Positions 1-56,323 of a stretch of 64,000 bases of DNA are shown here, one piece after another. Below the pieces are notes generated by a model. That model was not told the DNA's origin. It was given only the letters and a program-made list of their open reading frames with translations, and ran no database searches. The stretch comes from an uncultured Alphaproteobacteria bacterium (GTDB lineage Bacteria > Pseudomonadota > Alphaproteobacteria > Micavibrionales > Micavibrionaceae). The position numbers and the translations under genes were made by a program. Location: assembly GCA_963702155.1 (NCBI GenBank), contig OY969717.1, positions 657,563 to 721,562 of the forward strand, read 5' to 3'. The first letter of the stretch is position 1. Each line of letters begins with the position of its first letter.

Positions 1-41
1 AAGCAGGGGGTTGCAGGTTCGAAGTCCTGCAGGGCGCACCA
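1..41 (+). tRNA. 3' end of a tRNA gene, truncated by the window edge
   Basis: T-arm-like hairpin GCAGG/CCTGC around TTCGAAGT, then a 7-nt acceptor strand AGGGCGC, discriminator A and encoded CCA. The T-loop reads as 8 nt, so it is atypical or carries an indel. Confidence 0.55.
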
Positions 42-468
42 TTTACTCTCAAAACAAATTTTAAGACGATAAAAAGGGCGGTATTTACCTTTGCTCATAA
101 CTGTAAGTCTAGTTTTTAAACAAAATACATCACATATAAAAAAAGGTCCGGAGACCTTTTAAAAAGATGCTCCGGACAAACGGCGGTAATAGAGGGTGTG
201 TGCTTATTGTTATATGCCATTTCTAAAACCGTTGCAACAAAAAAAATGGCTTTTTTTGTAAAAAAATTTCAAAACCGGAACGATCTAATAAAATAAAAAT
301 AAAGATCAATAAAAGGATTTTAAATATAATTATTCATAGAAATAAAAAAGTATAATGAGTAAATATATACACAAAAAATAAGTAATAAGAGATTTATTTT
401 ATTAAATATTACTAGAAATACAAAAAATATGATTTGTTTATACTTCAAAGGGAAGTAGAAGTTCTACC

Positions 469-1341
469 TCAAGAAGACTTTGCAATCTCGTAGGCAGACG
501 CTTTATGCCCCCATTCGCTCCATGAACCATCAAAAACCGAGATATTCTTATATTCTGCTTCATAAAAAGCCAGAAAAATAACACATGCGGTAATACCGCT
601 ACCACATGTCGCTATGATAGAATCCCCTTCATTGATACCAATATCTGAAATAATAGAATTCAAATTATCTTTTGATTTAAAAAATCCGGTATCAGATTGA
701 ATGAATATATCTGCTGGCACATTTATACTTTTTGGAATATGACCCGCACGCATATTTGCTCGTGGCTCTGGCACTTTACCTGAAAAACGGGCAGGGTTAC
801 GCGCATCTAAAATATGAAAACCATCCTTACCTATCGAATTTTCTACGTTTTTTATACCAATATAAAAGCTGGACTGAAAAACGGCGTTATATTTTTTTTG
901 TTGTATTGTGCTTTGAGCATCACTTGAAACAACAGGATATCCGGCCTTAACCCAAGCCGGCAAACCTCCATTAAGTATATAAACTTCCTCATGACCGAAT
1001 GTTTTAAACATCCACCAAGCCCGCGCAGCGCCCATTTTTATACCATCCTGACCATACACTATAACAGTATCTTCTCGCGAAATACCCTTAGCTCCGACAT
1101 AATAACTAAAATGGTCTGCGTCAGGTAAAGTATTTGGAAAAACCGAATTTGGATCCGAAGCAGCGCGAATATCAAAATAGCGCGCATCTTTTATATGTGC
1201 GTTTTGATAAACGGCAAATGCATCTTTCCCTTGATTGGGCAAAACAAAGCTTGCATCTAGGACAACAAACCGGCCTCTATTTAAAGAGCCAGAAGATAAC
1301 ATCGAATGAAGTTTCTGCGGTGATAATAAAACACTACGCAT
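469..1341 (-). CDS. sseA: 3-mercaptopyruvate/thiosulfate sulfurtransferase (tandem rhodanese domains)
   Basis: 290-aa ORF with two rhodanese-like halves. Active-site loop CGSGITAC matches the CG[ST]GVT motif of 3-MST. Confidence 0.85.
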   Translation of the reverse strand: MRSVLLSPQKLHSMLSSGSLNRGRFVVLDASFVLPNQGKDAFAVYQNAHIKDARYFDIRAASDPNSVFPNTLPDADHFSYYVGAKGISREDTVIVYGQDGIKMGAARAWWMFKTFGHEEVYILNGGLPAWVKAGYPVVSSDAQSTIQQKKYNAVFQSSFYIGIKNVENSIGKDGFHILDARNPARFSGKVPEPRANMRAGHIPKSINVPADIFIQSDTGFFKSKDNLNSIISDIGINEGDSIIATCGSGITACVIFLAFYEAEYKNISVFDGSWSEWGHKASAYEIAKSS

Positions 1342-1406
1342 TAAAAAGTCCTTATAATATATATAAAAATTCGAAGTAAAAGCGGTTTTTCACACTACTA
1401 TATCAG

Positions 1407-1440
1407 TAAAAAAAGCCTGAAACAAAGTCAGGCTTTTCTT
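1407..1440 (-). terminator. Rho-independent terminator downstream of the 1458..1949 gene
   Basis: Hairpin AGCCTGA/TCAGGCT (1414-1434), flanked by an A-run on plus, which is a T-run on minus. Confidence 0.6.
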
Positions 1441-1457
1441 GAAAAAATATTAAAAAA

Positions 1458-1949
1458 TTATGCGGCTATGTTATAAGCATCTTCACGATTAAATATATCT
1501 TTAACTCTATCTTTTTGCTCATCATTATTAGTATCAACAGCTATAAGAATAGATCCGTTTTTGATCTCGTCTTCATAAATTTTTGCTTCATGTTCTGGAA
1601 TGCCGGCACCAACCATTGCGCCAACTAATCCACCTGCTGCTGCACCAGCTCCAAGACCCGCCAAGGCAGAAACTATAGAGCCAACAACAACAATATTTAG
1701 ACCAGGAATAGTCATTGCAGTAGCGGTAGACAGAGCACCAATAATTGCACCTATAACACCGCCAACAGTCGCGCCTGTGGCCGCACCTTCTGGCATTTTA
1801 CTTTCTTCTTCAATATTAAAACTTTTCCCGCGCGTCTCATCAGTCATGATAATACTGATTTGCTCATCAGTAATTCCAATAGCTTCAAGCTGATTTAATG
1901 TGCTCTCTGCCGCTAATTTTGTTTTAAATGTAGCTGTAACGTTTGACAT
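1458..1949 (-). CDS. General-stress-type membrane protein with a glycine-zipper C-terminal half
   Basis: 163 aa. Gly/Ala-rich hydrophobic segment (GAATGATVGGVIGAIIGAL...GAGAAAGGLVGAMVGAG) typical of glycine-zipper stress proteins. Confidence 0.6.
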   Translation of the reverse strand: MSNVTATFKTKLAAESTLNQLEAIGITDEQISIIMTDETRGKSFNIEEESKMPEGAATGATVGGVIGAIIGALSTATAMTIPGLNIVVVGSIVSALAGLGAGAAAGGLVGAMVGAGIPEHEAKIYEDEIKNGSILIAVDTNNDEQKDRVKDIFNREDAYNIAA

Positions 1950-1987
1950 GTGATTTCCTTTTTAAGTGATTTAATTTATACACCACT

Positions 1988-2013
1988 AATGAAAAGAAAG
2001 GTCTATAAGTTCC
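1988..2013 (-). promoter_or_regulatory. Candidate ECF (EcfG-like) promoter, GGAAC-N17-CATT
   Basis: The minus strand reads GGAAC, 17 nt, then CATT, about 40 nt upstream of the 1949 start codon. Confidence 0.35.
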
Positions 2014-2174
2014 TTTTAATACTTTAACAATGCAAACATTATGGATGAATAAAACATAATTTGTAAAAAGTACTCGAAAAGGTCTTTTGGAGTTTTTAAT
2101 AGACATGGTTTACTCCATTATAAATGTTTATATACTTCAAAAAACCAAATCCGATTTAAAGGTTTCTCAAAAAT

Positions 2175-3407
2175 ATGAACATCTATTTTTTCAGTTTATT
2201 AATTATCGGCATTTCAGGGTTGGGAATGACGTGGATACCCGCATTGGCAAAAAAGATATGTATATCTTATTCTCTCGTATTTGTAGCTTTCGGCATGTTG
2301 ATTTACTTGGTTTTTCCGGATTTGAATTGGCCGGACCCTCTAAAAGATACAAAACTTACATTACATTTTACTGAAATAATTGTGATCATTGCGATCATGG
2401 GAACAGGGCTGAAAATTGACCGCGCGCTATCTTTTAAAAAATGGCGCGCCCCTTTGCAGCTTTTAACGATCACAATGTTTTTAAATATTACAGCCATAGC
2501 AGCTATTTCTCATTTTATGTTAGGGTTTGATATAGCATCATCTATTTTGTTAGGCGCTGTTTTATCGCCTACTGATCCCGTGCTTGCAGGTGATGTGCAG
2601 GTTGATGAACCCAACAAAGGCAAAAGCGATGACGTAAAGTTCTCACTTACTGCCGAAGCTGGCATGAATGATGGGCTGGCCTTTCCTTTTGTTTGGCTTG
2701 CTATATTAATTTTAGGAATATCTACAAATAATGATTGGGCCATCGAATGGTTAGGCTTTTACATTATTTATAAAATTATCTGCGGGATAATACTCGGTTT
2801 TATAGCCGGTAAAATTGTAACATATTTGTTTTTCAAACTTCCTGAAAAACATAATATGTTGCATGTACGTGATGGCCTCGTCGCTTTATCGGCAACCCTT
2901 TTTGTTTATGGCGCTACAGAACTTTTACATGGGTATGGGTTCATAGCCGTCTTTGTAACAGCCTTAACAATAAGAAACTACGAACAAGATCACGAATATC
3001 ATGCAAAACTGCACTCTTTCACAGATCAAATAGAACGTGTTTTGCTAGCCGTTCTTCTTATTATATTTGGAGCAATAGTATTAGATGGCGTTCTTGCACC
3101 TTTAACATGGCCTATGATTGGTTTATCCATAGCAGCAATTTTTTTAATCAGGCCAATTTTTGGCTATATTGGACTAATAGGAACCGCTGTAAAAGAAAGC
3201 CATAAGAAAGCTATCGGTTTTTTAGGCATACGTGGCGTAGGGTCCTTATTCTATCTTACATACGGATTGGAAAAAGGTAATTTTATGTATGCACCCGAAT
3301 TATGGGCTATAACGGCATTGACCATCCTAGCATCCATATTTATACACGGTATGAGTGCGCCTTTGATAGTAAGATATTTAAATGTAGATAAAGATAATAA
3401 TGTTTAA
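2175..3407 (+). CDS. Na+/H+ (cation:proton) antiporter, CPA1-like
   Basis: 410 aa, about 11-12 hydrophobic segments, with an SPTDPV motif typical of Na+/H+ exchanger family proteins. Confidence 0.8.
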   Translation: MNIYFFSLLIIGISGLGMTWIPALAKKICISYSLVFVAFGMLIYLVFPDLNWPDPLKDTKLTLHFTEIIVIIAIMGTGLKIDRALSFKKWRAPLQLLTITMFLNITAIAAISHFMLGFDIASSILLGAVLSPTDPVLAGDVQVDEPNKGKSDDVKFSLTAEAGMNDGLAFPFVWLAILILGISTNNDWAIEWLGFYIIYKIICGIILGFIAGKIVTYLFFKLPEKHNMLHVRDGLVALSATLFVYGATELLHGYGFIAVFVTALTIRNYEQDHEYHAKLHSFTDQIERVLLAVLLIIFGAIVLDGVLAPLTWPMIGLSIAAIFLIRPIFGYIGLIGTAVKESHKKAIGFLGIRGVGSLFYLTYGLEKGNFMYAPELWAITALTILASIFIHGMSAPLIVRYLNVDKDNNV

Positions 3408-3598
3408 AATTATACAAAACATTGAGCAAACACATTTGATATCGGGTTAAATTTGGCAAGGAACTTGCTCGCTACACGTACTTATTCTTTATCAATATCT
3501 TGCGGATCAAAAAAACCATGATCTTAAAACTGGGCTAAGCTATAAAGGCAGGTCAAATTATCATAGAAAATAGTTGATATAAGTTAAATTTAATTAAT

Positions 3599-3624
3599 GG
3601 AACATATCTTCAATTCAACTGTTT
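3599..3624 (+). promoter_or_regulatory. Candidate ECF (EcfG-like) promoter, GGAAC-N16-TGTT
   Basis: GGAAC at 3599-3603 and TGTT/GTTT at 3620-3624, about 35 nt upstream of the csbD start. Confidence 0.35.
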
Positions 3625-3657
3625 GTAGATAGCGATTAACAAAAAAGGAGCACTAAA

Positions 3658-3870
3658 ATGAACAAAGATATTTTTGAAGGTAATTGGAAACAGTTTAAAG
3701 GCGAAGTTCAAAAACAATGGGGCGATTTAACAGATGATCAATTTGATAAAATTGCAGGACAGCGCGATAAACTTATTGGTCAAATTCAGGAAAATAAAGG
3801 TATAGCAAAAGAAGAAGCTGAAAAGGAAGTAAATGAATTCGAAAGTCGCTATAATGTCGATAATTCGTAA
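3658..3870 (+). CDS. csbD: CsbD-family general stress protein
   Basis: 70 aa. GNWKQFKGEVQKQWGDLTDDQ...GQRDKLIGQIQE is the canonical CsbD repeat pattern. AAGGAG RBS upstream. Confidence 0.9.
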   Translation: MNKDIFEGNWKQFKGEVQKQWGDLTDDQFDKIAGQRDKLIGQIQENKGIAKEEAEKEVNEFESRYNVDNS

Positions 3871-3955
3871 TGTTTACAAAGTTATCAGTACTGGCTCAAC
3901 AATTGTAACTGCCTATCAAATTATAAAGCATAGAAAAAAAATAAAGGAAAAAATT

Positions 3956-4462
3956 ATGTCACAAGAAGAAATACAAAATATCGAAGATCTATTCAAGCAC
4001 TTGCTACAGGATATGTATTATGCCGAAAATAGAATAAAGAAACAGTTACCTAATATGGCAAAAAAGGCAACACGATCTGATTTGAAAAAAGGCTTTGAAG
4101 ATCATTTAGAAGAAACCAAAGACCAAATATCCAAACTGGAGAACGTATTTGAAATTCTTGGCTATGATAAAGAAAAAGAAAAATGCGAAGCCATTGAAGG
4201 CTTACTTAAAGAAGGTGAAGGCCTGATTAAAGAAACTAAAGAAGGTGCTGTTCGCGATGCTGCATTAATCGTTGCCGCACAAAAAGTCGAGCACTATGAG
4301 ATTGCTTCTTATGGTACCTTATGTGCAATGGCAAATGAACTAGACTACACTGAAGCATCTGGAATATTACATGAGATTCTAGAGCAGGAAAAGAAGACAA
4401 ATGAGAAGCTTACAAAGCTGTCATATAAAACCAATGAAGACGCTGAACAAAAAGCGGCTTAG
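3956..4462 (+). CDS. Ferritin-like DUF892 (YciE/YciF-type) stress protein
   Basis: An internal ATG at 3956 follows AAAGGAAAA. The LFKHLLQDMYYAENRI...LPNMAKKA N-terminus is typical of YciE/YciF. The track ORF starts earlier, at 3833. Confidence 0.8.
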   Translation: MSQEEIQNIEDLFKHLLQDMYYAENRIKKQLPNMAKKATRSDLKKGFEDHLEETKDQISKLENVFEILGYDKEKEKCEAIEGLLKEGEGLIKETKEGAVRDAALIVAAQKVEHYEIASYGTLCAMANELDYTEASGILHEILEQEKKTNEKLTKLSYKTNEDAEQKAA

Positions 4463-4484
4463 GTTTTTAAAATAATTAAAATAA

Positions 4485-4510
4485 GAGCGGGCTATTCAGC
4501 TCGCTTTTTT
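4485..4510 (+). terminator. Rho-independent terminator after the DUF892 gene
   Basis: GAGCG...CGCTC-type hairpin followed by TTTTTTT. Confidence 0.55.
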
Positions 4511-4584
4511 TATAGTGCCACTTTTAATTTTGTAAACATACCTAGGCTTCACGCGCAATATTCTCTAATCAGAAAAAAAATTAA

Positions 4585-4628
4585 ACTAAATGGCGGTGCA
4601 GAGCGTCCAAAAAATAAAAAAATCTCCA
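4585..4628. repeat. Left copy of a 44-bp imperfect direct repeat (partner at 10939..10982)
   Basis: ACTAAATGGCGGTGC(A/G)GAGCG...TCTCCA. 37 of 44 positions identical by eye, same orientation. Confidence 0.7.
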
Positions 4629-4746
4629 GATTACCGCCTTGAATTTAAACAACCTTTTGTAAACCGTTCCTTAGCATGTCCTGAATGACCCACTTTTTAG
4701 GATTTAAACTGTCTACTTAGGGGGCTTAAAAACTGCACCGTGTATA

Positions 4747-4998
4747 TTGAAAATATACACCATCGAAAATTTATGCAAGATGGATTATGATCTTGTCATG
4801 AGGCAAAGAATACACGGCGTTCAAGATCACCCAGAATATGAAACACTAAAGACCTATGACGGCGATGTTGCCGAAGGGCTTTACCGTGTCCGGCTGGACT
4901 ATCATGCTTGGGGCAAATCCACCAACCTGTTTTGTTATTTTACTGATCTCACAACTGATAGCCGCTTTCGTTTAAGTGTTTTTCATCGCGGAGGTTAG
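4747..4998 (+). CDS. Hypothetical protein, possibly a truncated relic
   Basis: 83-aa ORF with a non-ATG track start (first ATG is at MDYDL). It ends exactly where the duplicated MauE segment begins. Confidence 0.3.
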   Translation: MKIYTIENLCKMDYDLVMRQRIHGVQDHPEYETLKTYDGDVAEGLYRVRLDYHAWGKSTNLFCYFTDLTTDSRFRLSVFHRGG

Positions 4999-5303
4999 TG
5001 ATCGGCATGACGATAAAGATGTTTATTGCTATCAGCATGTGCGCTCTGGCTATTCAAAAGCTTCGCGATCTTTATGCGTTCTCAAACCAGTTTATCACTT
5101 ATGATCTGCTGGCCATGCGGTGGGTGCGCTATGCCTATATCTATCCATTTGTGGAAATGCTGGCCGGTGTTTGCATGATCGCAGGTGTATTCATTCCGAT
5201 AGCGGCTCCGGCGGCTTTGTTCATAGGAACCATTGGTGCAGTATCCGTGTTTAAAGCTGTGTATGTAGAGAAACGCGACATCAAATGCGCTTGTGTCGGA
5301 GGA
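4998..5303 (+). pseudogene. 5' fragment of a MauE/DoxX-family membrane protein gene (duplicate of 21922..22227)
   Basis: Collinear with 21922..22227: 6 mismatches in the first ~115 nt, then identical. Homology stops after CGGAGGA at 5303, and the ORF runs into unrelated sequence. Confidence 0.75.
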
Positions 5304-5870
5304 AATTATAAATCTCATCTTCACGAACAATAGTATCGTTACGTTCGCTGTTGATCTCATAATTAGCCATAAGGAAGTAACGCAAGAAACGTAAGGGCTT
5401 TTCTTTGTTTTTTTCAAGCGGACTGGTGATCTTTTTCCATTCATCTTTTAACTGGAAAAATTGCTTGGGTGAGACCTGTGTAAATAATAGATTTTTCAAA
5501 AGATCCATAGGGTTTAGGCCAACGCCGCGCTCGTTAATCGTTTCAAAGATTTTTAGTGCGCTACTTACATCCGTAGAGATTTGAATGAAAACTACATTAT
5601 TGGCTAGATGCCCCCAATACTTTTTCAGTATGGCTTCATCATCATAGTTATTGATCAGGAAGCGATAAATAACGTCATAGGCGTTCAATATATTCTCAAC
5701 AGACCCATAAACCTCAATACCAGAACTTTGAATGTTGGCGCGAACAACTTGCGGATCACCATTCGCTTGAACAATCTTTTCAATAACCTCGCCAGCATTT
5801 TCGTATCTTGGCTCCAGTTTAAGATTAGTTTTAATGTCGCCTTGTGCATCAGTATATACAGACGGTAAAT
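5304..5870 (-). pseudogene. DUF262 (GmrSD-type N-terminal domain) gene fragment
   Basis: The minus-strand frame contains ...FETINERGVGLNPMDLLKNLLF, a DUF262-type motif. The 3' end is cut at the 5303 junction. There is no start codon or DGQQR box upstream, and a further frame break lies near 5870. Confidence 0.55.
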
Positions 5871-6071
5871 CAGGATAGATACTTTTCCATTGCCATAAAG
5901 TCGCTTAGATGCTTCCTAAAAACTTCATTTTTTCCGTAATGAGGATTGTAAGATTTCGGCTGATAAATATTGAAGATGATTTTGGATTTTATGACAGAAA
6001 CACTTTCACGCTTGACATAAATTTCTTATTCATTAATTTGAGAGTATTAAATAAATAGTATAGGATTTTTC

Positions 6072-6809
6072 ATGACTAAGCTCGCAAAAAGCTTGATCAG
6101 GATTGTTGTAGTATCTTCATTAAGTATTATTCTTCTTTATATTCTAGGGGGCTATTTCAGCCATTTAAGGAAAAAGGATCAGGAGATAAATACAAAAGCT
6201 TCAGAGGTTGATGAATATAACTTAGGTGATGAAACAATATTTATTCCTTCTATATATTTCCACAAAATAACAGACATTATGAGTAGACCTAGTGGAAATA
6301 TTGCTGCCTATTCTCCAGGAAACATTCCAGTTTTGCTAAGCGAAAAACAAATAAAGAAATTCAATGTAAATGATAAAGTAATAAAAATTGAATTTTTCGA
6401 CGTCAGCACATCTGAGGAAGTCAACCTTTCTAAAGGCTTGGAAGCAACAAAAAAAGTTTTTGCCTTAAACAAAGCTGCTGGTTTTCAATACGACCTGGAA
6501 TACTTTGTTCATTCTGATGGGAGAGATGTTTACAAAGGTTTATGGGTTGATAATGAAGATCAAGTCGACGCCTCTTATATATTATGCCAGCAAGATAAAA
6601 AGACCGTAACAACATGTGATCACGTGTTTAGAAATAATCAATTTAGCTTTGTTCTAAGATATGACAAGAAACTGCTTAGCGATTGGAAAAATATCAAAAC
6701 CAATATTTCGAATTTATTTGAGTCCTTTAACAATCGTAATGTTGCTAAAAATCATATTATTGAGAGTTTAGAAAAAGAAAAAGAAATACAATTTGGAGTA
6801 ATAGAATGA
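6072..6809 (+). CDS. Hypothetical N-terminally membrane-anchored protein
   Basis: 245-aa ORF in an AT-rich segment with one N-terminal hydrophobic helix. No recognisable motif. Confidence 0.5.
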   Translation: MTKLAKSLIRIVVVSSLSIILLYILGGYFSHLRKKDQEINTKASEVDEYNLGDETIFIPSIYFHKITDIMSRPSGNIAAYSPGNIPVLLSEKQIKKFNVNDKVIKIEFFDVSTSEEVNLSKGLEATKKVFALNKAAGFQYDLEYFVHSDGRDVYKGLWVDNEDQVDASYILCQQDKKTVTTCDHVFRNNQFSFVLRYDKKLLSDWKNIKTNISNLFESFNNRNVAKNHIIESLEKEKEIQFGVIE

Positions 6810-7107
6810 GGATTATCAGATTTTGAATTCCTCGATCATCAGATGTTTACAAACAAATTTTCTCTGCTATGTTAACTGCATGCGAAAAGATCATGTATGA
6901 AGTAAAGTATGATAATAAATAAAAAACCTGCTTTTATAGTTTTGACGTTGACTGTTTTAGTTTACCTCACTTCTATTGATAAAGCTTATGCTTGCCTTAC
7001 AGTCAATGACCCTGTGGAAGTTGCATTTAAAGAAAGCGATGTTGTTTTTTCTGGTAAGCTCGTAGGGTGCGAGTCTAAAAGAAAATAAAAATTTTCTTAA
7101 GTATGAA

Positions 7108-7428
7108 GTGCATCAAATTTGGAAAGGAAATATACAACGAGAGTATCTAAAACCTATTAAAGCATCATGTAATAGTCGGATAGTAAATTATAATTTAGTG
7201 GAAAGCCGAAACCAAAAAATAATTACATATGCTGATCATACCAACGAAAATTTTTATCTAAAAAAATACCACAAAGGAAACTGTGGCGGAAGAACGACTT
7301 TAATTCCTTCGTTTTGGCAAAAAGTATATTATAAGGCCTATTATTTCATAAAAGGGCAACACCATATACCATTCGCTTTTGAGGAAGATTACGAATTATT
7401 AGGCGAACCTAAGCATACCTTTAAGTAG
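7108..7428 (+). CDS. Hypothetical protein, possibly the 3' part of a broken gene that starts at 6908
   Basis: 106-aa ORF. A 59-codon signal-peptide-like ORF (6908..7087) lies just upstream in another frame. Confidence 0.3.
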   Translation: MHQIWKGNIQREYLKPIKASCNSRIVNYNLVESRNQKIITYADHTNENFYLKKYHKGNCGGRTTLIPSFWQKVYYKAYYFIKGQHHIPFAFEEDYELLGEPKHTFK

Positions 7429-7752
7429 AAAGTAAAATACAGATGAGTAATTTAAATTATACAGATGTAATAAATACATCTTCAGTATCTAATTCTGAAA
7501 CAAAAACAAAAATTGAATCCGTGCTAGATCAAATTGATGATACGAATGAGGGGCAGGTTTTACTCCAAAATATACTGCAAGGTGAGATGTATGATATTTT
7601 TGATTTGTAGCTATGTTCTAAATTTATTATTTTTTCGTTTTTGGTCATAATTGATCTCTTTCTCTAATATTTAGAGTAAAACTCAATTTATAGAAATTTT
7701 CTAGAAAAGGTTGTTGTTATAGCCCCCTAGGTCAATTAAGAATTGTTATATA

Positions 7753-8580
7753 TCAAGACGTTGAGCGTTCCTTAAATTCAGGAATCCAACTAGTTTCAAT
7801 TGTTGAGATGGAAATGTTTACTTTCTCTTTTTTCAAAAAATCATGGATTTCAGAAGCCGCAGAGGTATTTTTATATTTATACAGCTTTCGAAGACTATAA
7901 ATTTCCTCAGCACGAGTTTTATGAGCATTCGTCTTCTCAGCATTTTTATTGCCGCCTTTTGAGCCATGTACGGCACTGTAAGATGGCCCTTTAATATATT
8001 GGTACATGCTACTATGTATTTTTGAGAGTGAATCTATCTCGCATTGCTCGTAAGAGTAGAGTGCAAGTTCAACCGCATAAAAAGTAGCAATTGCATACAG
8101 CTCTTTTTCGGATCTTGTTTTCCCTGCTAATTTTAGTGAAAATGGATTTCTTTCTAATTCTTCATTATTTATATACGTATCATCGACAAGGGTTCCTATA
8201 TATTTATTTGAGTCTTGAGGTCTCTCGTCAATGATCTTCTTAAATCGTGAAATCATAATAATTTTATGCGCGTTCATCATAAATTGACCTCTCAACTCTA
8301 AATTAGTTTTGTAAAAATTATCCACCTCATCAATCTCATTGAGCTGATGCACTTCACACATTAAGGCCAAGAAAGCACGCACAGATGCATGCATCATTTC
8401 AGTGCGTTTAATTTTTAAATTTTTAGGTAACTCAACGTGTTTTGAGATGTCGTCTTTCCAAAAATACTTATAAGCATCGCTTAAATATATGGATAAACCT
8501 GTTTTTTCTAAAATTTGTGGGCTTACGAACAAATATTTTAATGTTGACGTATTTGTATATTTTTCATTTTCAAGAGACAT
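7753..8580 (-). CDS. Hypothetical protein, divergent from the DUF2924/recombinase pair
   Basis: 275-aa ORF, AT-rich. The C-terminal segment (SEIHDFLKKEKVNISISTIETSW) looks HTH-like. Confidence 0.5.
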   Translation of the reverse strand: MSLENEKYTNTSTLKYLFVSPQILEKTGLSIYLSDAYKYFWKDDISKHVELPKNLKIKRTEMMHASVRAFLALMCEVHQLNEIDEVDNFYKTNLELRGQFMMNAHKIIMISRFKKIIDERPQDSNKYIGTLVDDTYINNEELERNPFSLKLAGKTRSEKELYAIATFYAVELALYSYEQCEIDSLSKIHSSMYQYIKGPSYSAVHGSKGGNKNAEKTNAHKTRAEEIYSLRKLYKYKNTSAASEIHDFLKKEKVNISISTIETSWIPEFKERSTS

Positions 8581-8673
8581 AATTTTTTAAATAACCTTCT
8601 TCAGATGTTACTCGACTTCTTATGCTTTGTACGCATGTATGGACACTACCATGTAAGAAATAAGGAGTTGAAA

Positions 8674-9084
8674 ATGAAACATAAGAAAGAAATTAATCTG
8701 GCTGATTTGCGTGCACAATGGCAGCAAGCTTGGCAGATGAAGCCTCATAACCGTATCGGACGTAAAATGTTAGAGCGCAGCCTATATTTCAAACGGCACG
8801 AAAAACCATTGCCGCTGCAATCGCAAAAACGTCTTAGTAAGCTTATTCAAAATTATAAACGTAACCCACAATACTTTTCGCAAGGGCATTTGGTTTTAAA
8901 GCCAGGAATGAAAATCCTACGAGATTGGAAAGGCAAAACGCATACCGTAACGGTAACATCAAATGGGTTTAGATATGATGCCAAAAACTATACGAGCCTA
9001 TCTAAGATTGCATCGGAGGTAACCGGATCAAAATGGAATGGCTGGGTGTTCTTCGATCTTAAAGACAAGAAGGGAGCATCATGA
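8674..9084 (+). CDS. DUF2924-family protein (serine-recombinase accessory)
   Basis: ATG at 8674 follows AAGGAG. The motifs LKPGMKILRDWKGKTHTVTV..GFRYDAKNYTSLSKIASEVTGSKWNGWVFF match the DUF2924 pattern. There is a 4-nt overlap with the recombinase gene. Confidence 0.75.
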   Translation: MKHKKEINLADLRAQWQQAWQMKPHNRIGRKMLERSLYFKRHEKPLPLQSQKRLSKLIQNYKRNPQYFSQGHLVLKPGMKILRDWKGKTHTVTVTSNGFRYDAKNYTSLSKIASEVTGSKWNGWVFFDLKDKKGAS

Positions 9085-10622
9085 AACCAGACATAAAAAA
9101 CTGCGCTATTTATACGCGCAAATCTACAGAAGAGGGACTGGACCAGGATTTTAATACGCTCGATGCGCAACGTGAAGCTTGTGAGGCTTATATCTTAAGC
9201 CAGAAGGCCGATGGTTGGAAAGCGATTCAAGCCCATTATGATGACGGGGGCTATTCTGGTGGTAATATTGAGCGCCCTGGACTGCAGAAACTGATGCAGG
9301 ATATTAAAGCTAGTAAAGTCCAAACGGTCGTCGTTTATAAAATTGACCGATTGACGCGCTCGCTGACAGACTTTTCAAAGTTAGTTGAGGTTTTTGATGA
9401 ATACGGAGTAACCTTCGTATCGATCACACAAAGTTTTAACACCACAACAAGTATGGGGCGCTTAACCCTGAACGTACTGTTATCTTTTGCGCAATTTGAA
9501 CGTGAAGTCACGGGGGAGCGTATCCGTGATAAAATAGCCGCCAGCAAGCAAAAGGGTATGTGGATGGGAGGATTCCCACCGCTTGGATATCAGCGTGTAG
9601 AACGAAAGTTATTACCAGATCCGATAGAGTGCAAAACTGTAAAGCTTATATTCAACCAGTATCTAAAGCTCAAATCAGTAAGAGCGCTTGCAGATTTTCT
9701 ATCTGCTGAGAATATAAAAACACCAGAACGCGTGTCAAAAAAATGCCGCTTATATGGTAATAAAGAATATAGTAGAGGGCATCTTTATAAAATCCTCAAT
9801 AATCCTGTTTATATCGGCATGGTACGCCATAAAGACAAAGTTTACGAAGGTCAGCATGAAGGCATTATAGACAAGGCTGTTTTTGAAAGCGCACAAGAAC
9901 TGCTCAACAGGCAAGCCGTTGTAAGAGCAGGCAAGACGATTGATAGCGGACAATTGTTAAAAGGACTGCTCTATGATGTTGATGGCACGATTTATAGCCC
10001 AACATATACTTCAAAAGGTAAAAAGCGTTACAGCTATTATATCAGTCAGAATTTACTCCAATATCGTGACCACCCAAAAGGCGTTTTAGCGCGCATCCCA
10101 GCCCATGAAATTGAAAAGGCAGTCACTTGTGGTTTGAAGTCATGGCTATCCGATGACGCCAATCTTGTGGAATTATTTCCCTCCGTAGCTCGGCAGACTC
10201 TAAAATGGATTTCAAATCAGCATTTAGATATTTTGCACGATGATGTGCGCGCCATTTTAAGTATGGTTGTCTTGGCGCAAGATGAAACGACACTCAAAAT
10301 TAACACAGCCAAACTGCAACAATATTTAGAAGATACATTAAAGGTTACGCTTGAAACACCATCTTTAAAAGAGATCTTAGTATTTGTTCTGTATAAAACA
10401 AAGCGCGTAAATAATGGCGCGGTCATTGTTGAAACCAATAGTAGCAATAAAAACATGCTTGATATACCTAATGATCAGCTCGCGCGTATTGTAAAAGGCA
10501 TAGTTTGGCGAGACGAGCACTTTGCCGGTAGCACCCTCAAATCAATCTCAAAAAAGTATCAGCATGGCGAATATTATGTTCATCGATGTATTCATGAGAG
10601 TTTTGACTTTTTGAGCCGTTAA
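9081..10622 (+). CDS. Large serine recombinase
   Basis: 513 aa. N-terminal resolvase domain (AIYTRKSTEEG...DAQREAC, VVVYKIDRLTRS), followed by recombinase and zinc-ribbon-like regions. Confidence 0.92.
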   Translation: MKPDIKNCAIYTRKSTEEGLDQDFNTLDAQREACEAYILSQKADGWKAIQAHYDDGGYSGGNIERPGLQKLMQDIKASKVQTVVVYKIDRLTRSLTDFSKLVEVFDEYGVTFVSITQSFNTTTSMGRLTLNVLLSFAQFEREVTGERIRDKIAASKQKGMWMGGFPPLGYQRVERKLLPDPIECKTVKLIFNQYLKLKSVRALADFLSAENIKTPERVSKKCRLYGNKEYSRGHLYKILNNPVYIGMVRHKDKVYEGQHEGIIDKAVFESAQELLNRQAVVRAGKTIDSGQLLKGLLYDVDGTIYSPTYTSKGKKRYSYYISQNLLQYRDHPKGVLARIPAHEIEKAVTCGLKSWLSDDANLVELFPSVARQTLKWISNQHLDILHDDVRAILSMVVLAQDETTLKINTAKLQQYLEDTLKVTLETPSLKEILVFVLYKTKRVNNGAVIVETNSSNKNMLDIPNDQLARIVKGIVWRDEHFAGSTLKSISKKYQHGEYYVHRCIHESFDFLSR

Positions 10623-10782
10623 ATTCCCTGTTATTAACAATAAATTCCCTGTTAATTTTGAAAATTTTTTGCCACAAAAGATGTGAAACCTATGTATTCT
10701 CTGCTGTGCAGCTGATTTTCCCACGAAACCAAACATTAAAAAACAAAAATTCCCTGATAATTCCCTGTTTAACAGGGAATTC
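10622..10782. repeat. Cluster of AATTCCCTG(T/A)T motifs, including a perfect 11-bp-arm palindrome
   Basis: AATTCCCTGTTA at 10622 and 10643, AATTCCCTGAT at 10748, and the palindrome AATTCCCTGTT-T-AACAGGGAATT at 10759..10781. Confidence 0.8.
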
Positions 10783-10938
10783 ATGCGTTTGACCATTCGG
10801 GATATAAACCAAAGAGAGAAATGAGTAATATTAGGGTTATTCAAAGATTCTCTGGGAATCGTCAAAAACATGACAAGCTCAAACACCGCCTGTAGCGGGG
10901 AATCACGTGTAATATTCTCTGAAAGAGGGGAAAGGTAG

Positions 10939-10982
10939 ACTAAATGGCGGTGCGGAGCGACTAAAAAGAAAATAAGTCTCCA
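10939..10982. repeat. Right copy of the 44-bp imperfect direct repeat
   Basis: See 4585..4628. Confidence 0.7.
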
Positions 10983-11082
10983 ATGCAAACTGTTGTAAAA
11001 CAAAAGAAAAATTTTTTTCTATTTATACCTTGTCTCTACCGACCGCTTATATTTTAGAAAGATAGCAATTATTGAAACCGAT

Positions 11083-11409
11083 CTAAACCATTTTTTTGAT
11101 CACCCATGTAATAACCCCATATATTTTGAGGTCTTCTAGCGTGTTAAATGGCGGGAGGTTGTCAGCCTTATTGTGAGGAAGGAGGTCTATGTTATTCCCG
11201 TTGATGTATAGCCGTTTAATATAAATCTCATCACCAACCTCAATCGCCACAATATTTTCATGCTCGGCCTTACGTTTCACATCAACCAAGAGGTGATCTC
11301 CATCCTCAATATGGGCTTCAGGAATTGAACCACCTTGCGCCATGATGATCTCCAGGTCGTCGATGCTTTCAAAAAGCAGAGCTTGAATGTTTGCTAAATT
11401 GTTGTCCAT
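11083..11409 (-). CDS. S24 (LexA/UmuD-like) peptidase domain protein without a DNA-binding domain
   Basis: Start MDNNLANI at 11409, 1 nt after the czcD stop. GGSIPE..IEDGDHLLVD (Ser) and IYIKRL (Lys) match the S24 catalytic dyad context. Confidence 0.6.
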   Translation of the reverse strand: MDNNLANIQALLFESIDDLEIIMAQGGSIPEAHIEDGDHLLVDVKRKAEHENIVAIEVGDEIYIKRLYINGNNIDLLPHNKADNLPPFNTLEDLKIYGVITWVIKKMV

Positions 11410-11410
11410 A

Positions 11411-12295
11411 TCACACCTCACTACATTTATTGATTTCAAATTCTAAAGTTGAATGTTCGATAGAATGATCGTCATGAAGCATAGTTTTTAGATGTTTTTT
11501 TGTTGCTTCCATCTTATCCATATTCGAGAGAACAACGTGCGCTTCCAAGGCATTGCGTTGCTCGTCAAGCTGCCATACATGAACGTGATGAACATTCTTT
11601 ACGCCTTCAATATTTTCCATGGCGGTGGTTATATCGTCGATGCTGACATTCTCTGGTGTTCCTTCCATAAGCAGGTGAATTACTTTCGGAATTTCTGAAA
11701 AACCGTGATAGAGGACATATCCGGCAATGAGCAGCGTCATGGCCGCATCCGTCCATATCCAGCCATACAGTAAAATCAGCGTTCCGGCGATAATCACACC
11801 CACGGATGCTGCCGCATCTGTTAAGTTGTGCAGAAATGCCGCTCTAATATTCATGCTGTTTTTGGATTGGCTGTAGGTCAAAAGAGCTGTAAAAATATCC
11901 ACGACCAAGGCAATAGCCGCCACGATAACAATCGTCCATCCTGCAATCGGCTCCGGCGTTATAAAACGCATAATCGCCTCGTAACACAGATACAATCCAA
12001 TAATGATCAAAGTGGTCAGGTTAATGAGCGCGGCTATGGTTTCAGCGCGTTTGTAGCCAAAGGTTTTAAATTGATCTGGTGGTTTTCGACCAATCCGAAT
12101 AGCCACCAGTGCAATAAATAGCGAGGCCGCATCACTGAAATTATGCAGGGCGTCGGCAATCAAGGATAAGCTGCCGGAGATTATACCACCAATAACCTGT
12201 GCCACTGTCAGCAATATGTTTGCGCCCACCGCCCACCATAAGCGTTGTTCTCCTACTTCAGACGGATCTCCGTGATGATGATGTCCATGTCCCAT
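11411..12295 (-). CDS. czcD: Cation diffusion facilitator (Zn/Co/Cd efflux)
   Basis: 294 aa with an N-terminal HGHHHHG tract. IADALHNFSDA and FGYKRAE motifs, six TM segments and a C-terminal cytoplasmic domain. Confidence 0.9.
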   Translation of the reverse strand: MGHGHHHHGDPSEVGEQRLWWAVGANILLTVAQVIGGIISGSLSLIADALHNFSDAASLFIALVAIRIGRKPPDQFKTFGYKRAETIAALINLTTLIIIGLYLCYEAIMRFITPEPIAGWTIVIVAAIALVVDIFTALLTYSQSKNSMNIRAAFLHNLTDAAASVGVIIAGTLILLYGWIWTDAAMTLLIAGYVLYHGFSEIPKVIHLLMEGTPENVSIDDITTAMENIEGVKNVHHVHVWQLDEQRNALEAHVVLSNMDKMEATKKHLKTMLHDDHSIEHSTLEFEINKCSEV

Positions 12296-50882: not shown

Positions 50883-50914
50883 CTGGACTTCCGTTTTTTC
50901 CCAAGCGTTCATGG
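50883..50914 (+). promoter_or_regulatory. Promoter cassette copy 1: CTGGACTT-N10-CCAAGCGTTCATGG
   Basis: One of three copies with identical spacing. GGAC-N17-CGTT resembles ECF-type promoters. Followed by an A(A/C)CGAAAGG leader and an ATG. Confidence 0.55.
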
Positions 50915-50959
50915 CATCACACGATGAGCGTGTAACCCATTCAACCGAAAGGAAAAACA

Positions 50960-51352
50960 ATGTCTAAAACTCAAACAAAGCCCAAAGTGGCACCTAAACA
51001 GCCGGATCTTAAAAAAGATGAGGCGGTAAAACCAAAAACCGCACCCCCAACCACAGTAGAGGCCAAAAAACCGGAAGCGGACAAACCCAAGGCAGAGCCA
51101 GCCAAAAAGGTCACCAACAAACAGCGAATGATCGATATGCTCAATCGCCCCGATGGTGCGACCGATGCCGAGCTGGTCAAAGCCTTTAGCTGGAAAGGCA
51201 ATCATGTCGCCCGAGGCCAACGATCCACACTCGCCAAAGAATACCGCGAAAAGAAAACGGGCTTGATGCTGTGTAAATTTACGCGGACACCCAGCGGTGA
51301 CACCGCATATAAGATTGAGCCAATCGAAGAAGAAAAGCCCCAAGCGGCGTAA
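50960..51352 (+). CDS. DUF3489-family protein with a Lys/Pro-rich N-terminus
   Basis: MLNRPDGATDAELVKAFSWKGNHVARG fits the DUF3489 pattern (GAT..EL....W..HS.RG). Confidence 0.65.
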   Translation: MSKTQTKPKVAPKQPDLKKDEAVKPKTAPPTTVEAKKPEADKPKAEPAKKVTNKQRMIDMLNRPDGATDAELVKAFSWKGNHVARGQRSTLAKEYREKKTGLMLCKFTRTPSGDTAYKIEPIEEEKPQAA

Positions 51353-51461
51353 ATATGGGCGAGTGTCGGGCAATGAAGCCCGACACTCTATTCATTGAAT
51401 ACTAGGAAAGGAGCATTGCAATGAAATCTCTAAAAATACGATCATATGATGGTGTTTTTTG

Positions 51462-51493
51462 CTGGACTTACAGGTGTTTCCAAGCGTTCATGG
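51462..51493 (+). promoter_or_regulatory. Promoter cassette copy 2
   Basis: CTGGACTT at 51462 and CCAAGCGTTCATGG at 51480. Confidence 0.55.
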
Positions 51494-51525
51494 ATGTATA
51501 AAAACAAACAACGAAAGGCAATATA

Positions 51526-51747
51526 ATGAACACACAAACCAAACAAACAGCCGCTGAAAGCGTTGAGATGAGGTTATTTAGAATTAACGTCCAACTTGAC
51601 CGCCTTATGCGTCATAACAAAAAACAAGAACAAAATTTTGACCCAGATAAGGTTACATGGGCAGATGATGGCACACTCGGTCACATCGAAGCCAAGCTTC
51701 AAGAATTAAGCGACTTTGTTTTTCAAGAAGGCGAACACACAACATAG
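51526..51747 (+). CDS. Hypothetical small protein
   Basis: 73-aa ORF preceded by promoter cassette 2 and the AACGAAAGG leader. Confidence 0.5.
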   Translation: MNTQTKQTAAESVEMRLFRINVQLDRLMRHNKKQEQNFDPDKVTWADDGTLGHIEAKLQELSDFVFQEGEHTT

Positions 51748-51760
51748 AAAGGGACACCCC

Positions 51761-52057
51761 ATGACTGACGAAAAAATAATCCGTAAAGAAATGAAACAAT
51801 TACTGGCACATTTCGATGATAAAAAACTCGATAATATCTATTATCTGAAATTCAGATGGGCAGATGAAAGCGAATATGAAGACTTTGAAGAGTACAAAGA
51901 CGTTGTTAAAAAGCACCTTTCAAATTCAGTCTATAAATTCATCTCGCTCGATAAGCGATTTAAATTAACGGTCGAAAACACGGAAACAAATAACATATTC
52001 GCGGTATCATTTAAAAATGATGGCGTGTCCGTCAATTACAAACAAAAAGCCGCATAA
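51761..52057 (+). CDS. Hypothetical small acidic protein
   Basis: Start MTDEKIIRK at 51761. More AT-rich than its neighbours. Confidence 0.5.
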   Translation: MTDEKIIRKEMKQLLAHFDDKKLDNIYYLKFRWADESEYEDFEEYKDVVKKHLSNSVYKFISLDKRFKLTVENTETNNIFAVSFKNDGVSVNYKQKAA

Positions 52058-52060
52058 GGA

Positions 52061-52092
52061 CTGGACTTGCTCCGCGACCCAAGCGTTCATGG
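52061..52092 (+). promoter_or_regulatory. Promoter cassette copy 3
   Basis: CTGGACTT at 52061 and CCAAGCGTTCATGG at 52079. Confidence 0.55.
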
Positions 52093-53606: not shown

Positions 53607-53832
53607 ACTGGCCTCTATTACGTGAAGTGTGTGCGAATTATTTTTCGTAACGAAATAAAAAAGGTACTGTGACGCGCCGACGTAAAGGGGCGGCGAACGC
53701 GCGATATTTATTTAGCGACAGGGTTGCCAACTTGGTTGCGGTAACATGGTTTCGGTGGTCGCAAGCATTTGATTTATTTACACAATCACCGAAACGAAAC
53801 CGCCGCTTGGTTTCGGTGCTTATGATCCGGCT

Positions 53833-55122
53833 TCATCGGCAATGCAGAGAAGCGTATAAAGTTCGAAACGCATACGCTGCCACCAGTGGCACCACGCCAT
53901 TTCCACAGAGCCGAAGTCTGTCCACCCGAAAGGCCATCCCATCAGCCATTCGGTGAACAGCGGGTTTAAGCGCATATCCGATATCTTCCCATCTTTCATG
54001 GTTGCTGGGAGATGGTGGCCAGACTGGAATGCCAAGGTCGGAAGCGATATCTGCTGTGTTTTCCGTGGCTTCATCCCGGGGCTGTCTTTCCAATCCCGAG
54101 CGCACGGTGTCGGCCATGCCTTGGCTTGCGCCGTCAATGAGCTGTGAGCCTGATTTGTCCGGTCGTCCATCCGTTTCAGAAATGTTTCCTGTTTCTCGCC
54201 GCTTTCTTGCGCCCGCGGGGTCAGCCATTGTTTCGCTGTTTCCGCAAGGCCGTTGCTGAAATTCGCGCTGGTCGATCCTGGTTCCTGCGCTCTGGGTGTT
54301 GGCCAGTTGATTTTCGCCGTCTTGTATTTCTGGCCGGTTTGTTTCTTCTGCAGATCCTGTTTCGTATAAGGAAAATCCTTCGGTTGCATAACAGTCTCTG
54401 CCAGCGATGGTGTCCGCAGTACGTTGCGCCCATCTTTCCGGATCATCTTTTCCGGTGGTCTGGCTTTGTTGGTATTCGCATCGGTCGCCGTCACCGTCGG
54501 CCACATATGCCGGACTTGATCTCGAAGCATCAGCGGCATGTTCGCTTCCATCTTTTCCTTGAATTTTTGAGGACTTAGACATCCGCCCGTTGCCTCGGTC
54601 GCTTTCACGGTGCGCCATAATGAAGAGCCGTTCACGTTTATGCGTTGCACCGACTTCTTCCGCTGTAAACAAGCCCGCCGCAACGCTGTAACCCATTGAT
54701 CGTAAGTCGTCGTGGACTTGCTGAAAGCCCAAACGTAAATGGTGAGAGACGTTTTCAAAGAAACAGAGTTCCGGCTGGATTGCGGCGACAATGTCTTTGA
54801 TATAAGGCCAGAGATGCCGTGGGTCTTTTTCCCCGCGCTTGACTCCGGCGATTGAGAACGGCTGGCACGGATATCCTGCAGTGAGGATATCCACGCATCC
54901 GCGCCACGGTTTTGGATCGAAGGTCTTAACGTCAGACCAGATAGGTGCGGCATCCATGGTTTCATCTTCCATGCGCGCTGCAAGCTGCGCGGCAGCATAG
55001 GCTTCCCCCTCGACATAACAAACGGTTCTTGCTTCAGGCACTCCGAGCTTAACGCCGAGTTCGAGTCCGCCCGCACCGGAACAGAGGGACAGCACTGTTG
55101 GGGTATATGGATCCACATTCAA
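53833..55122 (-). CDS. DNA (cytosine-5) methyltransferase
   Basis: Motifs LCSGAGG (I), GYPCQPFS (IV), ENV (VI), RERLFI (VIII) and GNGVVP (X) all lie in this frame. A second, fully overlapping 432-codon ORF exists (see findings). Confidence 0.8.
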   Translation of the reverse strand: MNVDPYTPTVLSLCSGAGGLELGVKLGVPEARTVCYVEGEAYAAAQLAARMEDETMDAAPIWSDVKTFDPKPWRGCVDILTAGYPCQPFSIAGVKRGEKDPRHLWPYIKDIVAAIQPELCFFENVSHHLRLGFQQVHDDLRSMGYSVAAGLFTAEEVGATHKRERLFIMAHRESDRGNGRMSKSSKIQGKDGSEHAADASRSSPAYVADGDGDRCEYQQSQTTGKDDPERWAQRTADTIAGRDCYATEGFSLYETGSAEETNRPEIQDGENQLANTQSAGTRIDQREFQQRPCGNSETMADPAGARKRRETGNISETDGRPDKSGSQLIDGASQGMADTVRSGLERQPRDEATENTADIASDLGIPVWPPSPSNHERWEDIGYALKPAVHRMADGMAFRVDRLRLCGNGVVPLVAAYAFRTLYASLHCR

Positions 55123-55150: not shown

Positions 55151-55648
55151 TTAAACGACCGCAGGTTTTTTCCATTGAAGAGAATCTTCATCGAACCTGT
55201 ATGCAAAACCAAAGTGTCGCTTACAGCATTGCCGTATTTCAGTTACAGTAGCTTTGCCCCAATTTGGCAGAAGTAATAAGTCTGCATCGTTCAAATCCAA
55301 AACTTCATTCAAATTTTTGACACCAATGGATAAAAAGGAATTTACAGTTCTAGTTGAGAGATCAAGGTAGCGGATAGACAAATCAGGAATTCCCTGACTA
55401 TCTATCGTTTCACCGTCGTGAGCTTCAATATGAGCTTCAACATGTGCCGTCATATCTTTTTGATGTTGAACGAGCTTTTTGAGTTGTTTGTTTTCAAAAC
55501 GTAATTTCCAACTATGCTTCACGATGATTGTTTTTATTCTACCCGGGGATAGGTCAAAGCGTTTGGCAAGATCACTAAAACCCACACGCTCGTTAAGCCA
55601 GATATCGAATATTTTCTCGTTTCTTTCTTCTTTTTCAGGATCACGCAT
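55151..55648 (-). CDS. Mor/C-like HTH activator fused to an RNA polymerase alpha-CTD-like domain
   Basis: The N-terminus ERNEKIFDIW..GFSDLAKRFDLSPGRIKTII is Mor-like. The C-terminus LDLSTRTVNSFLSIGVKNLNEVLDLNDADLLLLPNWGKATVTEI parallels E. coli RpoA CTD [44 protein letters not shown]. Confidence 0.65.
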   Translation of the reverse strand: MRDPEKEERNEKIFDIWLNERVGFSDLAKRFDLSPGRIKTIIVKHSWKLRFENKQLKKLVQHQKDMTAHVEAHIEAHDGETIDSQGIPDLSIRYLDLSTRTVNSFLSIGVKNLNEVLDLNDADLLLLPNWGKATVTEIRQCCKRHFGFAYRFDEDSLQWKKPAVV

Positions 55649-55662
55649 CTTTCCTACCTGCG

Positions 55663-56208
55663 TTAAATTGGTTTTTTCGTGAGTTCGGCCAGAGCTTTGT
55701 TAAGTTCTTCCTGCAATTTTTTATGAATCTCCGCAGCATCGTTAAGGCTTGCCAATACAGGAGCCAAACGGTCAGGGATATTGAGAATATTGTCGCGTAC
55801 AGTGCGTGCCTGCTTAAACGCTGCGGCACGGACTTCATCCACATCCACGTATTTGCCGCCTTCAACTTTAGCTTTGATTTCCAGTAATTTTGCTTTTTCA
55901 CTTTCACTTTTGATCCGTGTTTTGAGAAGCAGTGTTGGCAGTTGTGAATCTGATAGTGGGCGTGGCGCGGACACATTGACCGCCGCGCTCTCAATCGCAT
56001 TTTCTGCTTTTCGGTCTTGATGTGTTTGTCTTGCGGGTTCGCGCCGCGCTTCCAATATGGCATCGGCCTGTACTGGATCGATCTTGTCATTAATCGTAGG
56101 AATAACACCTTCTCTGATAAGCCGACCGATATACTGGCGAGAAACGCCGCGTTGCTCTCCGTAATCGGTGCGCGTCAGGAGCTGTTTTTTCTTTGATTTT
56201 TTGGCCAT
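55663..56208 (-). CDS. Putative terminase small subunit (Nu1-like HTH protein)
   Basis: N-terminal HTH (LTRTDYGEQRGVSRQYIGRLIREGVIP) and a coiled-coil C-terminal region resembling small terminases. Confidence 0.5.
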   Translation of the reverse strand: MAKKSKKKQLLTRTDYGEQRGVSRQYIGRLIREGVIPTINDKIDPVQADAILEARREPARQTHQDRKAENAIESAAVNVSAPRPLSDSQLPTLLLKTRIKSESEKAKLLEIKAKVEGGKYVDVDEVRAAAFKQARTVRDNILNIPDRLAPVLASLNDAAEIHKKLQEELNKALAELTKKPI

Positions 56209-56323
56209 GAAATTTTTGGAAGAATTTTTGAGGGGATAAATTGAAGTCAGATTTCCCGATCATGCGTTTTATGATGCATCAATTCGGCAAAAAACCCGCC
56301 ACAAATTTCCGTGACCGATGCGG

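Follow-up and report, generated by a model that had tools for sequence, protein, structure and literature searches.

The window, as we call the whole 64,000-nucleotide stretch of DNA from an uncultured alphaproteobacterium that was analyzed, includes a prophage in which a gene on the minus strand (55151 to 55648, stop codon included) encodes a complete protein of 165 amino acids, referred to below as the fusion protein. The open reading frame is single and uninterrupted and starts with ATG; the strand had been absent from the earlier sequence-only reading of this DNA. A ribosome-binding region, AGGTAGGAAAG (55649 to 55659, minus strand), lies immediately 5' of the ATG, which is separated from the stop codon of the upstream gene by a gap of only 14 nt. 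The ribosome-binding site is good and the gene is translationally independent. A search for a promoter-like site of its own found none. The upstream neighbor (55663 to 56208, minus strand) encodes a small-terminase-like protein (phrog_57, PHROG E value of 9.6e-33). The downstream neighbor (53833 to 55122, minus strand), which lies 28 nt past the stop codon of the fusion gene, encodes a C5 cytosine DNA methyltransferase (PF00145, E value of 1.4e-31). The order of genes on the minus strand is primase-helicase, RuvC-like nuclease, DUF6362 protein, small-terminase-like protein, and fusion protein, beyond which lie the C5 methylase, a ParB-N6 methylase, a plus-strand island, and, later, the structural genes. 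An impression gained by eye that the DUF6362 protein is sigma-4-like had no support from BLASTP or PDB searches.

The closest relative of the fusion protein, P0002, is a full-length protein of 161 amino acids that is 53% identical and can be aligned from residue 1. On a metagenomic phage contig, its gene occupies the syntenic position within an identical gene order. Because P0002 aligns from the first residue and shares the gene order, the open reading frame at 55151 to 55648 is a real, conserved gene. In locus L005 the fusion gene directly follows the small-terminase-like gene and is followed by the C5 methylase, as in the window. Identities of neighboring proteins between the window phage and the P0002 contig (76%, 64% for the small-terminase-like protein, and 39%) bracket the 53% of the fusion protein; the gene has therefore been passed down within this phage lineage for a while.

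When the window phage was compared with its relatives, the fusion gene was present in just two of them all, the window phage itself and the P0002 contig. It was absent from five more distant phage relatives (L031, L032, L033, L035, and L036) gathered via the small-terminase-like protein. In two of these, unrelated genes on the opposite strand lie between the small-terminase-like and large-terminase genes (L031:3251-4144 and L032:5528-6160); in another the C5 methylase comes immediately after the small-terminase-like gene, the fusion gene being absent (L033:3011-4201); and in the remaining two the small-terminase-like gene leads almost directly to the large terminase (L035:5516-5869). The stretch from the small-terminase-like gene to the large-terminase gene is a variable cargo slot. 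The fusion gene has a GC content of 38.8% (GC3 of 33%) versus 45 to 54% GC in its neighbors. Judged by these sequence comparisons, it is an accessory rather than a core gene. As these distant relatives lack it, it cannot be an essential late activator of the phage group. A role as controller of the C5 methylase was considered and rejected, since L033 has the methylase without the fusion gene. The methylase locus of L033 consists of two open reading frames of about 390 codons that overlap in adjacent frames (3011 to 4201 and 3013 to 4179), the same layout as at 53820 to 55122 of the window. The prophage as a whole, at about 45 to 52% GC versus about 35% for the host (positions 12000 to 64000 of the window compared with the host flank at positions 1 to 12000), shows a large compositional mismatch with its host.

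An AlphaFold model built from an alignment with 14 relatives had a mean pLDDT of 79.6 (a single-sequence model reached 40) and divides the protein into five parts, all encoded on the minus strand. A three-helix helix-turn-helix (HTH) domain of the sigma-70 region-4 type, discussed below, occupies residues ~6 to 50 (55499 to 55633) and was modeled with a pLDDT of >95. A long helical extension of the recognition helix follows (residues 51 to 76; 55421 to 55498), so modeled that residues 35 to 76 form one continuous helix. Residues 77 to 89 (55382 to 55420) are a predicted flexible tether, with low pLDDT and no secondary structure over residues 77 to 90; its length differs across family members. 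The second folded domain, of the RNA polymerase alpha-CTD type, spans residues 90 to 146 (55211 to 55381). Residues 147 to 165 (55154 to 55210) are a C-terminal tail that is predicted to be disordered (pLDDT of <50). The tail motif GF..(R)..SL.WK is common to the fusion protein and P0002 in their alignment, and we take the tail to resemble the tail of RpoA, GLSLGM..NWPP.

The sequence-only reading had proposed that a phage protein here joins an HTH to a module like the C-terminal domain of the RNA polymerase alpha subunit, and profile and structure searches bore this out. Pfam profile PF03118 (RNA_pol_A_CTD) matched residues 88 to 141 with 38.7 bits (E value of 8e-10) against a gathering cutoff of 23.8 bits, a result reproduced for the fusion protein in a genome-wide Pfam scan. 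RpoA chains or alpha-CTD fragments made up 49 of the 50 matches listed in a PDB sequence search, and the top 50 Foldseek matches of the model in the PDB were all RpoA. Isolated alpha-CTD chains superimposed on the model with target TM-scores of 0.72 to 0.92 and rmsd values of 0.7 to 1.9 Å. The alpha-CTD fold was thus recovered by both kinds of search, and the pattern of residues is, by these scores, well beyond chance. On the strength of the profiles and the model, the C-terminal half is a real RNA polymerase alpha-CTD with the compact (HhH)2 fold. It has the same fold as the RpoA domains in PDB entries 1LB2, 3GFK, and 1DOQ and shares with RpoA the HhH signature L.LS.R..N.L ... PN.G..S..EI. 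Unlike RpoA, the fusion protein is phage borne and has its alpha-CTD joined to an HTH. The alpha N-terminal domain (PF01000/PF01193) was absent from the 165-residue protein in the Pfam scan, and it therefore cannot assemble into RNA polymerase.

The family alignment (n=14) was mapped onto the numbering of the Escherichia coli alpha-CTD, with the DNA-contacting "265 determinant" taken to be R265, N268, C269, G296, K298, S299, and E302. The corresponding residues of the fusion protein are R, N, S, G, A, T, and E, respectively. R265 and G296 are kept in all 14 family members, N268 in 12, E302 in 13, and K298, which is alanine in the window protein, in 8 of the 14; position 299 is S or T in every member. 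This alignment indicates that the DNA-contact determinant is conserved across the fusion family. The host has its own rpoA gene elsewhere in the genome, encoding a protein of 337 amino acids, and the alpha-CTD of that protein is only 24% identical to the module of the fusion protein. Recent capture of the host's own alpha-CTD was ruled out on this ground, and the module is instead an old, diverged copy.

The alpha-CTD is found in other settings as well. Large proteins in the protein library have 3 to 11 tandem alpha-CTD repeats, including P0003 (1031 amino acids), P0004 (570 amino acids), P0005 (1572 amino acids), P0012, and P0021, an indication from sequence that the domain serves as a repeated DNA-binding module far beyond RpoA. 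In another protein, P0132, a helicase-associated domain and a sigma-70 region 4 domain occur together with two alpha-CTDs. Residues 46 to 144 of the fusion protein weakly matched the middle part of the BREX kinase PglW (E value of 0.0027 in PADLOC and 0.053 in NCBIfam), a hint of an alpha-CTD-like HhH module within PglW. The possibility that the fusion protein is a component of a defense system was rejected, as this weak match was the only one in PADLOC.

The N-terminal HTH had been attributed in the sequence-only reading to the Mor/C type, named for Mor and C of phage Mu, which act by contacting alpha-CTD and sigma. Its general shape (RN..I...G.S.LA..F.LS...I..I) is that of Mor, and the Mor profile PF08765 weakly matched 3 of the 14 relatives (best E value of 5e-4). 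The window protein alone had no significant match to any HTH family: hmmscan gave no match to PF04545 (Sigma70_r4), PF08765, or PF07750 (GcrA) even at E values of ≤10, and the genome scan gave a subthreshold match to Sigma70_r4 (11.1 bits, E value of 0.8, cutoff of 24.1). Among the relatives, PF04545 matched 9 of 14 (best E value of 5.6e-11), PF08281 matched 3 of the 14 family members, and PF07750 weakly matched 2 of 14 (E value of ~0.003). A profile of the 14 N-terminal domains retrieved region 4 of SigA, RpoH, and RpoD from the PDB with E values of 2e-7 to 1e-5, and Mor was absent among the 60 PDB matches listed. When the family profile was compared by hhalign with region 4 of the host RpoD, the score was 93.6% (E value of 2e-7) versus 10% for Mu Mor and 27% for Mu C. 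Structural neighbors in BFVD include phage proteins labeled "sigma-70 region 4" and "ECF sigma." At the level of the family, the HTH is most aptly classed as sigma-70 region-4 type; the three-helix HTH and the pattern ER..I / S..R.RQI are common to the family and to region 4.2 of RpoD and SigA. Mor is of the same broad HTH class, but these profiles place it in a different family.

Could the fusion protein nonetheless be a middle or late activator of the Mor/C type that carries its own alpha-CTD? The fusion gene lies near the early/late boundary, and comparison of the window protein with phrog_532, a "late transcriptional activator" family, gave an E value of 0.18; neither the window protein nor five other members had a significant match in PHROGs v4. 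Mu Mor and C (PF08765) are also small phage HTH proteins. However, Mor has a dimerization domain followed by a C-terminal HTH, an order opposite to that of the fusion protein, in which the HTH is N terminal. In addition, the window phage, judged by its primase-helicase, Cas4-type exonuclease, and RuvC, is not Mu-like, and relatives of the phage do without the gene. Taken with the lack of a PF08765 match in the window protein and the hhalign scores, these differences led us to reject membership in Mor/C. The family assignment is largely refuted by the profile comparisons, and an activator of this type is very improbable.

The fusion protein is not a sigma factor, since sigma regions 2 and 3 are absent; Pfam searches found no match to Sigma70_r2 in either the window protein or its relatives, and the window protein is too short to include that region. 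It also departs from sigma-70 region 4 in that the recognition helix extends into the long helix rather than into a sigma C-terminal tail. The residues of sigma-70 that contact the -35 element are R584, E585, R586, R588, and Q589. In the window protein, whose recognition helix reads SPGRIKTII, the corresponding residues are P, G, R, K, and T, so that only R586 is kept. All five contact residues are kept only in P0044 and P0145 within the family alignment, and the recognition helix of P0044 (VTRERIRQI) has the same nine residues as region 4.2 of the host RpoD. Because its recognition helix differs from the residues that read the -35 element, the site bound by the window protein is probably not a canonical -35 box. 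Recognition-helix residues vary from member to member across the fusion family, and such variation fits site-specific regulators better than it fits a universal -35 binder.

These residues bear on the possibility that the protein is an RNA-polymerase-directed decoy or competitor, which would occupy DNA of the UP-element/-35 type and so silence strong host promoters or, in a variant, titrate factors whose usual docking sites are alpha-CTD or sigma region 4. Both routes would end in host shut-off or redirected transcription. The architecture consists of precisely those two modules with which the upstream half of a promoter is read, the DNA determinant of the alpha-CTD is conserved, and some relatives, such as P0044, keep the full sigma-70 set of -35 contacts. 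The gene is also a compositionally foreign accessory gene, as genes for host interaction often are, and gp67 of Staphylococcus aureus phage G1 is reported to show that phages target UP-element-dependent promoters. However, the window protein keeps just one of the five -35-contact residues, and its alpha-CTD, at 24% identity to that of the host, would make a poor surface mimic. The mimic or decoy role put forward in the sequence-only reading is somewhat weakened by this low identity. Furthermore, few residues precede the three-helix core, so the additional sigma-4 helices for docking on the beta flap are probably absent. Such a decoy function is, on this evidence, unlikely.

The long helix may be a coiled-coil or dimerization element. 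Heptad periodicity along it was significant in 3 of the 14 relatives, whereas in the window protein the signal was borderline (p of ~0.07), a point that counts against the regulator described next.

We favor, at roughly even probability, the interpretation that the fusion protein is an accessory phage transcription regulator with two DNA-binding heads. The HTH head, of sigma-70 region-4 type, would read the major groove and pick the site. Its recognition helix would continue into the long helix, through which the protein may dimerize, and the flexible tether would link the long helix to the alpha-CTD head, an (HhH)2 module expected to read the minor groove. The alpha-CTD could add affinity by binding adjacent A/T-rich DNA, as in UP elements, or it could touch RNA polymerase in the manner of the polymerase's own alpha-CTD. 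Transcription initiation would then be regulated either by activation, with the module making a surrogate alpha-CTD contact, or by repression through occupancy. Both heads are predicted to bind DNA. Two further points weigh against a regulator: the HTH of the window protein is itself below the Pfam threshold, and the gene contexts across the family are heterogeneous and would equally fit a "moron" with another role.

A bolder form of this interpretation, which we regard as unlikely, makes the protein a stand-alone miniature of that half of the RNA polymerase holoenzyme with which upstream promoter DNA is read, acting in trans at promoters. It might occupy promoter-upstream DNA and so block host RNA polymerase, or it might give a neighboring polymerase a surrogate alpha-CTD contact. 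If true, it would be a previously undescribed route by which phages reprogram transcription.

The distribution of the family was examined with an exhaustive phmmer search of 1.84 billion cluster representatives, in which the window protein had 243 matches at E values of ≤1e-3. Among the best 150 of the 243, about a dozen clusters have the full HTH-linker-alpha-CTD layout, with lengths of 138 to 270 amino acids and 21 to 53% identity; in the remainder of these 150 the alpha-CTD module has a different setting. Members, which are near-singletons, come from metagenomes and carry the database labels "DNA-directed RNA polymerase alpha subunit" or hypothetical. A homologous-protein search with the window protein returned the query alone, and homologue searches with the family alignment or with another family sequence, P0077, returned little more than the query. 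No match came from megablast or tblastn against 50,697 phage records or from a search by protein for related loci in genomes or viral contigs, and the fusion gene was absent from 60 relatives of the host genome. By these searches the gene is single copy and extremely rare. The suggestion that such a fusion is uncommon therefore held with respect to rarity, but the protein is not a one-off: the matches point to a sparse, recurrent, phage-borne family.

All relatives that could be placed are phage genes and lie in modules of the early, early/late-junction, or head type. P0032 and P0122 follow a head-morphogenesis gene, P0133 is among early genes beside an integrase, P0142 follows the gene for a single-stranded-DNA-binding protein, and P0152 opens a series of small early genes. 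P0048 lies between a DNA methylase gene and the small and large terminase genes, just upstream of the terminases, which is the usual position of a late regulator.

These contexts also raise the possibility of an accessory to DNA packaging or DNA architecture, which would bind and bend DNA near the packaging site for the small terminase or act as a nucleoid-type binder. The fusion gene directly follows the small-terminase-like gene both in the window and in L005, and the places of P0048, beside the terminases, and of P0032 and P0122 point the same way. The combination of an HTH at the N terminus and a long helix after it resembles the layout of small terminases, and alpha-CTD arrays of up to 11 repeats suggest a generic DNA-binding use. 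On the other hand, relatives of the window phage package their DNA without the fusion gene, other family members are among early genes far from packaging genes, and each placed phage has its own small terminase. A packaging or architectural function is accordingly quite unlikely, and the two-headed regulator remains the interpretation that we prefer.

Noncoding elements near the gene were examined as possible targets of such a regulator. Three cassettes in the plus-strand island (50885 to 50911, 51464 to 51490, and 52063 to 52089, plus strand) have the form GGACTT-N15-GCGTTCA with fixed spacing. The idea that the fusion protein acts on these repeats, put forward in the sequence-only reading for the interval 50883 to 52092, gained no support. 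The core occurs a fourth time, as TGGACTT-N14-16-GCGTT, at a distant place in the genome (G000:C1:2012039-2012064, equivalent to L040:2540-2565; minus strand), where it precedes an operon of a 154-amino-acid protein gene and a serine recombinase gene on another mobile element. As the fusion gene is rare and single copy, a dedicated reader of the three cassettes was rejected. We read the motif as a -35/-10 pair resembling an ECF-sigma-type promoter, GGAAC-N16/17-CGTT. A genome scan found several sigma genes of ECF size in the host.

A conserved noncoding element (56209 to 56323, minus strand; L005:7331-7390) lies between the DUF6362 gene and the small-terminase-like gene. In the window it includes a perfect hairpin, GTGACCG-CAT-CGGTCAC, with a T-tract, and the sequence GCATCATAAA..GC.ATG.TCGGGA with an ATCAT/ATGAT inverted repeat. 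It was rejected as a specific operator upstream of the operon since it is in part common to relatives that lack the fusion gene.

RNA polymerase reads promoter-upstream DNA with two modules, the alpha-CTD and sigma region 4, and these are also the docking places of most activators. A natural protein that has both modules, is detached from the polymerase, and is carried by phages offers a compact means of studying how transcription initiation is tuned or hijacked by phages, and it is a potential part for synthetic biology as a portable promoter-upstream binder. The label "DNA-directed RNA polymerase alpha subunit" on members of the family is misleading and should be corrected.

Known proteins offer partial parallels. 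In GcrA, a sigma-4-like DNA-binding domain is joined to another domain that acts on RNA polymerase. GcrA-type proteins (PF07750) occur in Alphaproteobacteria and their phages, and methylase genes adjoin the fusion gene in the prophage, whose host has an RpoA that seems alphaproteobacterial to us. The second domains differ, however, as GcrA has a domain that binds sigma region 2 in place of the alpha-CTD. No functional study of alpha-CTD-like phage proteins or of sigma-4/alpha-CTD fusions was found in the literature; a phage open reading frame with an alpha-CTD is listed in a genome paper (PMC9127768), as annotation only.

Stand-alone phage proteins of 110 to 210 amino acids resemble the fusion protein in having one alpha-CTD module each, but their N-terminal parts differ, and tblastn with the window protein found none of them. 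Two examples from cultured phages, both 197 to 210 amino acids long and annotated "RNA polymerase subunit alpha," are gp9 of Roseobacter phage CRP-701 (L012:3716-4309) and c00050 of Bacillus phage Goe8 (L013:1959-2591). Each has a single alpha-CTD and an unrelated N terminus with no Pfam sigma-4 match. The alpha-CTD gene of CRP-701 is flanked by two genes for PD-(D/E)XK nucleases.
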